The notes under the pieces: model-generated
Database searches by the model: none
What the model was told of the DNA's origin: nothing
The model's input: only the letters and a program-made list of their open reading frames with translations
Translations under genes and position numbers: made by a program
Part shown: in pieces, positions 13,973-17,208 of the stretch
Numbering within the stretch: the first letter of the stretch is position 1
Layout: each line of letters opens with the position of its first letter
Origin: Promethearchaeia archaeon
Lineage (GTDB): Archaea > Asgardarchaeota > Lokiarchaeia > Sigyniarchaeales > SOKP01
DNA: 31,927 bases
Assembly: GCA_029856105.1 (NCBI GenBank)
Contig: JAHQWH010000115.1
Location: 1-31,927, forward strand
Direction: 5' to 3'

Positions 13973-15262
13973 TTATGGTGTTGTTATTTTTGGGTTTTTG
14001 TCTTTATCCCAATTTACAGCAAACAAAAAGTCCCTACTTGCCTTATTTGTGTATATTAAAGAAAAGCCTCCAATCTCTTCGAACTTTAGAGCTAATTCTT
14101 CTAAATATTCATATTCTGGGAAGTAATATTGAAGTGTTTTATCGCTTTTTAGCCTTTCGTTGATCTTAAGAGCTTTTGCTTGTAAAGTAAATCCTTTTAT
14201 TTCAAAAAAATTTGGATTAGCTTTATCAATTAATTTAATATAGTCCTTTATGTAATTTTCAGATAAATTTAAGTTTTTTACAGCTGTTATTCTTATTAAA
14301 CTTCTACAAGACAAACTTTCAACTAAATCTAAGGTGTCTGATATTTTACCCCACCCATTTTTAATCATAGGGCGGCAAACTTTTTTATACACCGTCTCGT
14401 TTGGTGCAGGTAAGGTTATATACAGTTGGGAAGGTAACGAATTTAAACTTTCAATCTTTTCTGGTAGCGTTCCATTAGTTACAATAAATGAAGTCATGTT
14501 GCGATTCCGGAATTCTTCGACCAATCCACCTATTTTGGGATACAATAGCGGTTCACCATCAAGCGATATTGCTGCGTGATTTGGATTCATTGCTTCGCCA
14601 TGAACCTGCATTATCTCATCAGGAGTCGTTAATGCTAAATTGAATAGCTTTACGATTTCGTCTCGTGAATCAATACAGCATGAAATCTCTTTCTCGATTC
14701 TATAATTTTTCAAAGAATCATCTATAGCCGTAATAAATCCTTGATTTTTTAGTAAATTAACAGCGCGGTTAACTTTGTTTTTACTTACATGAAGTTTTCT
14801 CGAAAGTGAATTTGTATTATGCTCTTCATCGTTTGATAACATAAAATTGAGCATATCCACCATAATTTCGTAATTTTCAAGATATCTCCTTAATGGCAAA
14901 TGATTTTTTATAATATCACGCTGATGACGGATCATTTCATCAACTAGATCTTTTGGCTCGTCCGGTTCAACAATAAATTCACCACCTAAACTTCCTTCTT
15001 CAATATCTCTCCAACAAAAAACGCATTGGTGGTTGCAGAACGGCATAGAAGGAGTATTTTGTAAACACCTGTGGCTTTGAATTCCAAAAACTCCTTTATA
15101 ACAATTTCGATTATCTCTACCTGTTAATAATTTTTGTTCTAACCAATGACAAGGTTTAATTGCAGTGTGCTTGTTCCTACCTAATATGCGATATGTCGTT
15201 TTTGTGTATTTTTCAACAAAATCGTTTGTAATTCTATTATTAACAATGTATCGGTTTTTCAT
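13973..15262 (-). CDS. taw1: 4-demethylwyosine synthase Taw1/TYW1 (radical SAM) with an internal insertion
   Basis: HTAIKPCHW, CYK, SHRCLQNTP, radical SAM motif CNHQCVFCWR, HAAISLDGEPLLYP, FIVTNGT, SQLYITL, PNFFEIKG. Confidence 0.93.
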   Translation of the reverse strand: MKNRYIVNNRITNDFVEKYTKTTYRILGRNKHTAIKPCHWLEQKLLTGRDNRNCYKGVFGIQSHRCLQNTPSMPFCNHQCVFCWRDIEEGSLGGEFIVEPDEPKDLVDEMIRHQRDIIKNHLPLRRYLENYEIMVDMLNFMLSNDEEHNTNSLSRKLHVSKNKVNRAVNLLKNQGFITAIDDSLKNYRIEKEISCCIDSRDEIVKLFNLALTTPDEIMQVHGEAMNPNHAAISLDGEPLLYPKIGGLVEEFRNRNMTSFIVTNGTLPEKIESLNSLPSQLYITLPAPNETVYKKVCRPMIKNGWGKISDTLDLVESLSCRSLIRITAVKNLNLSENYIKDYIKLIDKANPNFFEIKGFTLQAKALKINERLKSDKTLQYYFPEYEYLEELALKFEEIGGFSLIYTNKASRDFLFAVNWDKDKNPKITTP

Positions 15263-15420
15263 ATCTGAGTGCCACTTCGAATTCTAGTAGTTTATAATTA
15301 TAGGTAAATGTATTTACTTAAGATATTAAAAATTGTTATTTAAAAATATAAGTAGCTCAGTAATTAGTAAGCGACTTATAAAATATAATTAAAAACGGAT
15401 TTAAATTTTTTCGAACTAAG

Positions 15421-16299
15421 ATGTTAAATAAAATAAAAGGCCAAATGCTTAATTTGGGGTTGAAATTTATCAGCGTTGACGAAAAGATAGTGAGAATGAT
15501 ATTAGAAACTAGCTCTTCAAACATTAATGAGATTGTTATAATGCCCGCAGTTAAGATAGTAATGAAAAAGTTAGTTAATAAGTTACAAAATAAGGTTGTT
15601 CATGGTAGAGTTTACAATGGAATATTAAACGGGATTAGAGTAAGTGTAATTCGTTCTCAGGTAGGTTGTCCAAACGCAGCGCTTACAATAGAATGTTTGA
15701 AACGTTCTAAAGCAAAAGTTATTGTTAGAGTGGATTTTTGCGGAGGTATTTATGGAGATAATACCGGTATTGATGTTGGCGATGTTGTGGTCCCAAAATT
15801 GGCTTACTGCGATGATGGAACGACCCCTCAATATATTAGGGCTAATCAGACGTTATTAAATCAACTAGAATCAATAAGTAATCCTTTATCAACTGTTCAA
15901 AATGTAATTGCAGGAAATCACACTATTTTTATCTCAAAACCAAATGAAATTTTAAAGAATTTATTAATCAAAGAAGCTCGTGCTTTTAATTCTGAAAAAG
16001 CAAAAGAAGTACTTCTTTGGACAACAGATGCGTTATTTTGTGAAACATTTGAATTCGTACGAGCATTAAAAGCAATCAATATCAAAGCAATCGATATGGA
16101 ATCTTCGATTTTATTTTTGTTAGGTCAACTCTATAACTTAAAAACAGCTTCAATTCTTTCAGTATCAGATTTACCAGGCCATCCTCAGTTTGATCTACTT
16201 AATTCAAACGAAATTCATCCTGATATGGAGGTTGGGGTTGATAACGCAATTAAAATTTTAATAAAAACTCTCCCAAAAATACAACACGCTTTAGTTTAA
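15421..16299 (+). CDS. Nucleoside phosphorylase-I (PNP/UDP) family protein, divergent
   Basis: VGCPNAA, RVDFCGG, GDVVVP, DDGTT..Y, WTTDALF, IDMESS, SVSD. Confidence 0.8.
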   Translation: MLNKIKGQMLNLGLKFISVDEKIVRMILETSSSNINEIVIMPAVKIVMKKLVNKLQNKVVHGRVYNGILNGIRVSVIRSQVGCPNAALTIECLKRSKAKVIVRVDFCGGIYGDNTGIDVGDVVVPKLAYCDDGTTPQYIRANQTLLNQLESISNPLSTVQNVIAGNHTIFISKPNEILKNLLIKEARAFNSEKAKEVLLWTTDALFCETFEFVRALKAINIKAIDMESSILFLLGQLYNLKTASILSVSDLPGHPQFDLLNSNEIHPDMEVGVDNAIKILIKTLPKIQHALV

Positions 16300-16305
16300 A
16301 CAAAG

Positions 16306-17208
16306 TCATAAACCATGTAACAATTTAGAAAAGTTAGGTTCTTTGAAAAACTCGTTAAACTTTTTGAGTAGTTCAATATTAACCAAATGTATTTTTTGAT
16401 TTTGTTTATTCTTAATAGGCTTTATTAAATCCAAATCCTTTAACTTTTTCATGTGATATTGAATTGTTCCAGAATAAACATTAAGTATTTCTCCTATTTT
16501 TGAAATGGCAATACCCTCATCTTTAAAAATTTCCTCAATTAATTTTGGGATTAAGGGGTTTGAAAATATCACCTTATACTTATCGTAATCCTCGGGAACA
16601 TCAACCAAGAAATAATGTAATGATTTTCCTATTTTTTTAGATCTAATTAATTTAAATCGTTCTAAAGTCATTATATGTTTTAAAAATGGTGTTCTCGTTA
16701 TTTCTAATTCTTCTTCGACTTTCGCATCTCTAGCGTGAATACCCGGATTATTTTTTATGAATCCTAATATTTTTGATAGTTTTTCGTTATTTAGAATTTC
16801 TAATTTGGTTCTTCTTTCGTTGGTTACAATCCAACTCTTTTCTTCTAAACTTCTAATAGCCAAGAATATTTCTTCTTTGCTATAACCTTTCTTATACGCA
16901 AGTTTTGCTATGCTCTTTGCGTATAACTTTTCAATTATGGGAAATTTCTGCAATTCTGCTTCAGAAGCGACTTCGATATCAAAATCAGCATCGTATCTTT
17001 TTAATTTTAAAATTATTTCTGCTATTTTTAAAACATCCTTCTCTACTTCAGTTAATTCCTCAATTAACTTTCCTTGTTCTGCTATTTTTGTTTTTTTAAC
17101 TGTTTTAACCTCTTGTAAAGGAGCGAAATTTAAACGCCTAAATGAACTTGTCTCTAACTCTTTCATTTTTTTGTTTTCTCCAGTTTCTCTTCTTTTTTCA
17201 AGTGACAT
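16306..17208 (-). CDS. Multi-winged-helix putative transcriptional regulator
   Basis: ILGFIKNNPGIH...HIMTLERFKLI and ISKIGEILNVYSGTIQYHMKKLKDLDLI form tandem wHTH domains. A possible third lies at SKEEIFLAIRSLEEKSWI. Confidence 0.78.
   Translation of the reverse strand: MSLEKRRETGENKKMKELETSSFRRLNFAPLQEVKTVKKTKIAEQGKLIEELTEVEKDVLKIAEIILKLKRYDADFDIEVASEAELQKFPIIEKLYAKSIAKLAYKKGYSKEEIFLAIRSLEEKSWIVTNERRTKLEILNNEKLSKILGFIKNNPGIHARDAKVEEELEITRTPFLKHIMTLERFKLIRSKKIGKSLHYFLVDVPEDYDKYKVIFSNPLIPKLIEEIFKDEGIAISKIGEILNVYSGTIQYHMKKLKDLDLIKPIKNKQNQKIHLVNIELLKKFNEFFKEPNFSKLLHGL

Follow-up and report, generated by a model that had tools for sequence, protein, structure and literature searches.

The stretch of DNA analysed here, called the window, comprises the 31,927 nucleotides of contig JAHQWH010000115.1 (assembly GCA_029856105.1) from a Promethearchaeia archaeon. 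On its minus strand it carries the gene taw1, which encodes a 4-demethylwyosine synthase of the Taw1/TYW1 family, a tRNA-modifying enzyme that uses radical S-adenosylmethionine (SAM) chemistry. The catalytic core of this protein is interrupted by about 90 residues predicted to form a complete winged-helix domain, and a conserved palindrome is found in front of the gene. The features of the gene and of its product are as follows.

13973 to 15262, minus strand: taw1, 429 amino acids plus stop codon, 4-demethylwyosine synthase Taw1/TYW1 (TIGR03972, PDB entry 2yx0 and fold matches).
15008 to 15157, minus strand: residues 36-85, with the auxiliary-cluster cysteines, the lysine of the CYK sequence and the radical-SAM motif, all invariant in alignments.
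14630 to 14899, minus strand: inserted domain of 90 amino acids, residues 122-211, predicted winged helix (translation, alignment, AlphaFold2 model and structural matches).
14834 to 14893, minus strand: helix H1 of the insert, residues 124-143, with the conserved R126, N130 and E132 (DSSP on the model, column conservation).
14744 to 14782, minus strand: helix H3, the predicted "recognition" helix, residues 161-173, with a polar and basic face formed by S160, K161, K163, R166 and K172 (model and conservation).
14696 to 14734, minus strand: predicted beta-hairpin wing, residues 177-189, variable in sequence (model and alignment).
14630 to 14665, minus strand: extra helix after the wing, residues 200-211, which returns to the core (model and alignment).
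14120 to 14152, minus strand: clade-specific loop LKSDKTLQYYF, residues 371-381 (alignment).

The assignment of the 429-residue open reading frame (ORF) to Taw1 is based on profile, structural and residue-level evidence. The ORF matches TIGR03972 in two stretches with an E-value of 5.9e-79, and PDB entry 2yx0, TYW1 from P. horikoshii, with an E-value of 1.5e-59. Its TIGR03972 score of 265.3 bits lies below the curated NCBIfam cut-off of 317.95 because the insert interrupts the model and splits the match in two; both halves match this family, and the next-best family reaches 28 bits. The cysteines of the auxiliary 4Fe-4S cluster (C38, C54 and C66), the Schiff-base lysine K56 in CYK and the radical-SAM motif C76-x3-C80-x2-C83 are invariant in alignments of 54 and of 11 sequences. 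The cluster cysteines and K56 line up with residues of MJ0257, and in M. jannaschii K41 is the site of the pyruvate adduct formed through a Schiff base (PMC7761594). Modelled as a whole with AlphaFold2, the protein has a mean predicted local distance difference test score (pLDDT) of 93.8 and a predicted template modelling score (pTM) of 0.90, and contains the partial (beta/alpha)6 barrel of the solved TYW1 structures. Foldseek aligned it with 2yx0 and 6djt at E-values of 3e-26 and 5e-24, with target-normalised template modelling scores of 0.85 and 0.87. A homodimer prediction with two copies gave a score of 0.00, which amounts to no verdict and was counted neither way. The gene is the single Taw1/TYW1 match in its genome, which is 92% complete, and the 429-residue protein must therefore carry the Taw1 function. 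From the intact catalytic residues and the fold, the protein is predicted to be a functional Taw1, the 4-demethylwyosine synthase of tRNA-Phe.

The insert is located in the connection from the first barrel helix to the short helix that precedes the second strand, the latter carrying the SAM-binding sequence HAAISLxGEP. Residue 118 of the query corresponds to residue 122 of 2yx0 and residue 222 to residue 137, which sets a linker of 14 residues against 103 residues, with about 89 extra. A preliminary description of the window had reported about 90 additional in-frame residues where other Taw1 proteins have a short linker, and had placed them at 14618-14890, that is, residues 125-215, in agreement with the interval mapped here. 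In the translation, the string IRHQRDIIKNH represents residues 111-121, NTNSLSRKLHVSKNKVNRAVNLLKNQGFI residues 149-177 and EAMNPNHAAISL residues 223-234. Both the extra length and its restriction to some Taw1 proteins were confirmed by the 54-sequence alignment, in which the interval between residues 121 and 214 measures 65-98 amino acids in 27 insert-bearing proteins and 1-6 amino acids in 27 insert-less ones. An equivalent segment is missing from most Taw1 proteins. The same form of 425-452 amino acids occurs in well over 100 genomes, and the insert is therefore neither a chance event nor an assembly artefact. The reported absence of intein termini also holds. The insert starts with LPLRR and ends with NLAL, followed by TTPDE, and no HINT fold is found. 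An intein or homing-endonuclease insertion was rejected on account of the lack of an N-terminal Cys, Ser or Thr and of a C-terminal His-Asn followed by a nucleophile, the winged-helix fold predicted for the segment and its length of 90 amino acids, which is below mini-intein size.

The winged-helix-like character proposed for this segment in the preliminary description is reproduced by the structure predictions with high confidence. In the full AlphaFold2 model, where the insert has pLDDT values of 89-98, the predicted topology is H1-b1-H2-H3-b2-b3, with helices at residues 124-143, 150-157 and 161-173, a bridge at residue 148 and strands at residues 177-179 and 187-189. The wing is followed by a short turn, the helix 200-211 and the core helix 214-223. 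Helix 200-211 is missing from the two shortest variants (P0128 and P0142). When the insert was modelled alone with 27 homologous inserts, the same elements were obtained at a pLDDT of 91.8. An exhaustive structural search of 48,161 chains gave winged helices for all of its best 50 matches, with Z-scores of 7.4-8.8 and, in the best rows, root-mean-square deviations of 1.4-2.4 A over 61-73 residues. They include the Zbeta domain of ADAR1, the Z-alpha domains of ZBP1 and PKZ, TtgV/IclR, the winged helix of Rpa2, MarR, ArsR/SmtB, Rrf2, SelB, the cullin WHB domain and Cdt1. A Z-score near 8 is weak on its own; here the uniform list of winged helices and the profile matches concur. Foldseek searches with the insert retrieved ArsR, MarR and Z-alpha domains at E-values of 2e-3 to 2e-2, and a profile of the 27 inserts matched almost exclusively winged helix-turn-helix (wHTH) proteins of the PDB, with a best E-value of 4e-5.

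Assignment of the insert to a particular family gave scattered results. The insert alone reaches 22.1 bits with HTH_24 (cut-off 21.9) and the full protein 20.2 bits, the score with TrmB is 22.3 bits (cut-off 25.6), and the 27 single inserts are spread over 22 helix-turn-helix families of Pfam, near or below threshold. A profile search of 5.8 billion proteins for standalone relatives returned two Taw1 fragments only, and the weak genomic matches are LysR, ArsR and IclR regulators of generic similarity. No insert relatives were found among the ESM Atlas features, and the Atlas fold search retrieved the same Taw1 cluster and ordinary wHTH regulators. The alpha subunit of PheRS binds tRNA-Phe, and a weak NCBIfam match had pointed to its N-terminal winged helices; an origin of the insert from these was rejected after hhalign comparison with the PheRS alpha subunit of the same genome (E 0.018, probability 2.5%). 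The winged-helix fold of the insert is thus well supported as a prediction, and no specific family can be named.

The insert is accompanied by a second, smaller expansion. Every one of the 27 insert-bearing proteins has 9-23 residues between R370 and P382, where each of the 27 insert-less ones has 6-7. The loop of residues 371-381 may pack against the winged helix.

The 429-residue form is common in metagenome bins of Lokiarchaeia (Promethearchaeota). In a sample of 151 genomes across the phylum, contiguous full-length matches within a frame of 410-470 amino acids were found in two families of the same order (f1 and f2) and in three families of other classes (f15, f9 and f4), the latter represented by genomes G002, G007, G014, G018, G029 and G048; in every other sampled family, a gene of 320-350 amino acids matched in two pieces. 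Within its own order the insert is present in 130 of the 134 genomes of family f1 and also in families f2, f28 and f29, and the sister orders of the same class (f30-f32; G151-G157) have an insert-less Taw1 of 323-336 amino acids. The cultured Lokiarchaeum ossiferum (UYP45136.1), a member of the same order as the query, and a representative labelled Sigynarchaeota are among the bearers. A search of 1.84 billion cluster representatives gave, within its best 150, no more than about ten clusters whose match runs unbroken through the site; eukaryote-type TYW1 and other archaeal Taw1 proteins match in two pieces. Longer Taw1 representatives of 384-563 amino acids were considered as independent insertions at this site and rejected, as their additional length comes from N-terminal extensions or a low-complexity insert elsewhere, and never from the site itself.

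In a maximum-likelihood tree built without the columns of the insert and of the C-terminal loop, the 27 insert-bearing proteins form one clade, with support of 94 in the Shimodaira-Hasegawa-like approximate likelihood ratio test and of 96 after the insert-less genes of the same class were added. Because the insert-bearing proteins are monophyletic, one change of state suffices to explain their distribution. The Taw1 gene tree conflicts with the taxonomy, a pattern which suggests that the insert-bearing allele has moved between Asgard lineages, or that it has undergone differential loss or replacement. Judged from these sequences, the insert is an old trait of a Taw1 subfamily, inherited across a large Asgard clade, and not special to this genome.

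Constraint on the insert differs from that on the enzyme. Identity to the query is 40-79% in the core and 13-70% in the insert; in distant members the insert falls to 13-28% (about 20%) while the core stays at 40-56%. The length of the insert is maintained at 85-98 amino acids in 25 of the 27 sequences, and hydrophobic positions are conserved across the three helices and both strands. The conserved polar positions are R126, N130, E132, S160, K161, K163, R166, K172, E202 and E204. The columns of K161, K163, R166 and K172 are basic in 78%, 96%, 67% and 63% of the 27 sequences, respectively. In H3, the hydrophobic residues 164, 167, 168 and 171 occupy one face, and the serine and the basic residues occupy the opposite one, which corresponds to the side with which winged helices usually contact nucleic acids. 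The conserved H3 residues are the same across lineages that are otherwise very different, as would suit a ligand that is itself conserved, such as tRNA.

These observations suggest a role for the domain in substrate binding. A complete winged-helix domain would have been inserted into the Taw1 core in one Asgard lineage, alongside the smaller expansion of the C-terminal loop. The domain would be packed rigidly on the enzyme, with the polar and basic face of H3 turned to the solvent. This face would most likely add contacts to the substrate tRNA-Phe, at its anticodon stem or along the body of the L-shaped molecule, and such contacts could raise the affinity or help to position m1G37 in the active-site cleft. 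The domain would accordingly be an accessory substrate-binding module, and neither a second enzymatic activity nor a regulatory one. An accessory module for tRNA binding, with tRNA-Phe as the likeliest partner, is the reading tentatively favoured here, since the host enzyme acts on tRNA, basic residues are situated at the contact face and these residues are the same across lineages. RNA- and Z-nucleic-acid-binding winged helices are among the structural matches: the C-terminal winged helix of SelB and the Z domains of ADAR1 (Zbeta) and ZBP1 belong to the same fold class as the insert (Z 8.0-8.8), and have no specific sequence relationship with it. Domains added to tRNA-modifying enzymes, such as TRAM (in MiaB), PUA and THUMP, usually bind tRNA and hold the RNA substrate, and the same logic is proposed for the insert, again in the absence of a specific sequence relationship.

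The upstream region of taw1 contains a further feature, which is not part of the protein.

15347 to 15380, strand not assigned: palindrome of 34 nt, TATAAGT-N7-TAATTA-N7-ACTTATA, 84 nt upstream of the taw1 ATG, candidate operator in promoter context.

Comparison of 21 aligned species revealed that the arms and the centre of this palindrome are conserved and the spacers free to vary. Its distance to taw1 is preserved in intergenic regions of double the length, and in about 44 hand-checked genomes it is found on the taw1 contig with an offset of 416-432 nt relative to the start of the insert query, which puts it about 82-98 nt before the taw1 ATG. At zero mismatches the palindrome is unique in its own genome, and at up to two mismatches it is present in 117 of the 135 genomes of the family. 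Near-matches in the own genome (C161 and C221 within ORFs, C137 beside unrelated genes) are probably due to chance. The arms were also considered as a general TATA box and rejected, no positional enrichment being found upstream of 1516 long ORFs, and an RNA element was rejected in view of the lack of an Rfam match and of covariation in the spacers. In the remaining groups with the insert, no comparable conserved palindrome is evident in front of taw1.

A second class of sites, TATAAGT-N4-ACTTATATAAGT-N4-ACTTATA, agrees with the palindrome in its outer arms and total length and consists of two adjacent palindromes of 18 bp. It was found in 25 of the 135 genomes, with zero hits in controls. Eleven of these double-palindrome sites are positioned directly upstream of a ribU-type gene, which encodes the S-component of a riboflavin-type energy-coupling factor (ECF) transporter. 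Eleven adjoin a small ArsR-type gene, some of them also a methyltransferase gene and one a gene for a flavodoxin/4Fe-4S fusion. The ArsR-type protein was rejected as the binder of the half-sites, as it is present in 15 of the 135 genomes only. Full-length RbkR, composed of a wHTH domain and a CTP-dependent riboflavin kinase, is encoded in 126 of the 135 genomes and in all 13 genera, the own genome included (G000:C94:25835-26536; 234 amino acids, N-terminal wHTH). RbkR regulons have been shown to include ribU, and its lineage-specific operators are palindromes of 16-20 bp, two of which are adjacent in some lineages (PMC5397151); Lokiarchaeota are not mentioned in that study. Given the half-sites shared with ribU-type genes and the near-universal presence of RbkR, this protein is a more economical binder than Taw1. 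The palindrome is probably a lineage-specific RbkR operator, and taw1 a candidate member of an FMN-responsive regulon. Such membership would link the supply of flavin with wyosine synthesis, in parallel with the flavin dependence described for eukaryotic TYW1 (PMC8941971). If assigned to RbkR, the palindrome would say little about the winged helix of Taw1.

The favoured tRNA-binding role has to be weighed against several observations and against other explanations of the same domain. The insert is not a uniformly basic domain: its net charge is close to 0 in the query and varies between -5 and +7 in the orthologues, and the wing is devoid of any conserved basic residue. The insertion site is an alpha-to-beta connection, and in a TIM barrel such connections generally lie on the side opposite to the active site. 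Taw1/TYW1 enzymes of other archaea and of eukaryotes function without the domain, and the faster evolution of the insert relative to the core would equally be expected of a decoration that is simply tolerated. All these points count against tRNA contacts, and the charge and the wing would suit instead a possible module for protein docking or of purely structural value, that is, a platform for a partner such as the reductant of the radical-SAM cluster or another enzyme of the wyosine pathway, or a stabiliser of the fold together with the C-terminal loop. Winged helices that bind proteins are frequent among the structural matches (cullin WHB, the Rpa2 winged helix bound to PolD, Cdt1), the strict co-occurrence with the second loop expansion suggests intramolecular packing, and the pTM of 0.90 points to a rigid attachment to the core. 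Moreover, archaeal Taw1 is devoid of a flavodoxin domain and needs electrons from a separate protein (PMC8941971). The exposed Lys and Arg residues conserved at the start of H3 occupy, however, a classic position for nucleic-acid contacts, and the gene neighbourhood points to no partner outside one family. A docking or structural role is thus regarded as rather unlikely. A relic without function, in the form of a degenerate mobile element, an intein remnant or a neutral tolerated insertion, would account for the fast evolution of the insert and for the failure to find a standalone relative or donor. Yet proteins with no more than 40-50% identity in their cores still agree in the fold, length and hydrophobic core of the insert, more than 140 genomes yielded no frameshifted or decayed copy, and neither the termini, the fold nor the size, shorter than that of any mini-intein, are those of an intein. 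This possibility is barely credible.

A moonlighting regulator of the BirA type would recognise an operator, such as the palindrome of its own promoter, through the winged helix, and would couple Fe-S, SAM or flavin status to transcription. The nearest sequence families of the insert (TrmB, HTH_24, MarR, Lrs14/Sta1 and the N-terminal domain of BirA) agree with this proposal. So do the position of the palindrome, its uniqueness in the genome and its spread in the family, its difference from the general TATA motif of the genome, and its spacers, which vary without covariation in the manner of protein-binding sites; the rarity of the ArsR-type gene also removes one general competitor for the site. 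The preliminary description had proposed DNA binding as the alternative to an extra tRNA-binding module, and this option is weakened by the palindrome found in the intergenic region that it had named, 15263-15420, as its half-sites and its 34-nt geometry recur directly upstream of the ribU-type transporter genes of related genomes, where the prevalence and the known operators of RbkR indicate that protein. In addition, the insert far exceeds the palindrome in age and distribution, being present without the site in genus g4, family f2 and the other classes, and the conserved H3 residues are unchanged between lineages with and without it. DNA-binding regulation by Taw1 therefore appears improbable. 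A broader version, in which Taw1 would be both an enzyme and a transcription factor that binds the TATAAGT/ACTTATA palindromes at taw1, ribU-type and flavodoxin/ferredoxin genes and reports cofactor or redox status to a small flavin regulon, is more doubtful still and is considered very improbable.

Comparison with known systems helps to place the insert-bearing enzyme. The solved archaeal Taw1 proteins, PH1705 (2yx0) and MJ0257 (2z2u, 6djt), share with the query the family, the fold, the cysteine set for two clusters, the CYK lysine and the SAM-binding strand. In contrast to the query with its winged helix of 90 amino acids, they are single-domain proteins of 311-342 amino acids with a linker of 14-18 residues, and their loop equivalent to R370-P382 is shorter. 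Eukaryotic TYW1 also has a core enlarged by an extra domain, but this addition is an N-terminal FMN-binding flavodoxin domain and not an internal winged helix (PMC8941971); the long eukaryote-type TYW1 representatives match in two stretches, with nothing at the insertion site. In BirA and RbkR an enzyme is likewise joined to a winged helix, and the N-terminal domain of BirA is among the weak profile matches of the insert (E about 0.008-0.015). Their wHTH domain is N-terminal, acts in a dimer on a palindromic operator and has a demonstrated regulatory role, whereas the domain of the query is internal.

In the literature, Taw1/TYW1 has been presented as a single radical-SAM domain in Archaea and as a flavodoxin fusion in eukaryotes (PMC7761594 and PMC8941971). 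The preliminary description had recognised no described precedent for the architecture, and the literature searches found no account of it. No paper was found that refers to an inserted segment or winged helix in Taw1/TYW1, or to the wyosine enzymes of Lokiarchaeia, and a 2020 review of archaeal wyosine synthesis makes no mention of a winged-helix insertion (PMC7761594). As far as can be told from sequences, the insert-bearing form is a third Taw1 architecture, in which a predicted nucleic-acid-binding fold is placed within the catalytic core and has become fixed across much of the Asgard archaea. To our knowledge, no structure of a complex with tRNA is available for radical-SAM tRNA enzymes, and the insert-bearing proteins constitute a natural experiment on substrate recognition by enzymes of this kind.

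Other components of the wyosine pathway were sought in the same genome. One strong gene of the Trm5/Taw2 family was identified (C161:15067-15564), and no TYW3-family gene was found in this 92% complete genome. Judged from this gene content, the pathway may stop at imG-14 or imG2. ARAGORN detected 21 tRNA genes only and no credible tRNA-Phe(GAA) in the genome; the single call for phenylalanine, with an AAA anticodon and an intron of 1171 nt, is probably false. The tRNA genes of this genome are either poorly assembled or heavily interrupted.

Two further genes accompany taw1 in related genomes. A protein of 300 amino acids with two or three wHTH units, encoded at 16306-17208 on the minus strand, was considered as a relative of the insert and rejected (E 0.017, generic similarity). 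Its gene is found in 17 of 24 loci of family f1 beside a divergent gene of the PNP_UDP_1 superfamily (nucleoside phosphorylase or nucleosidase, no specific equivalog), located at 15421-16299 on the plus strand, and this latter gene is syntenic with taw1 in 22 of the 24 loci. A nucleosidase beside a radical-SAM enzyme could deal with 5'-deoxyadenosine.

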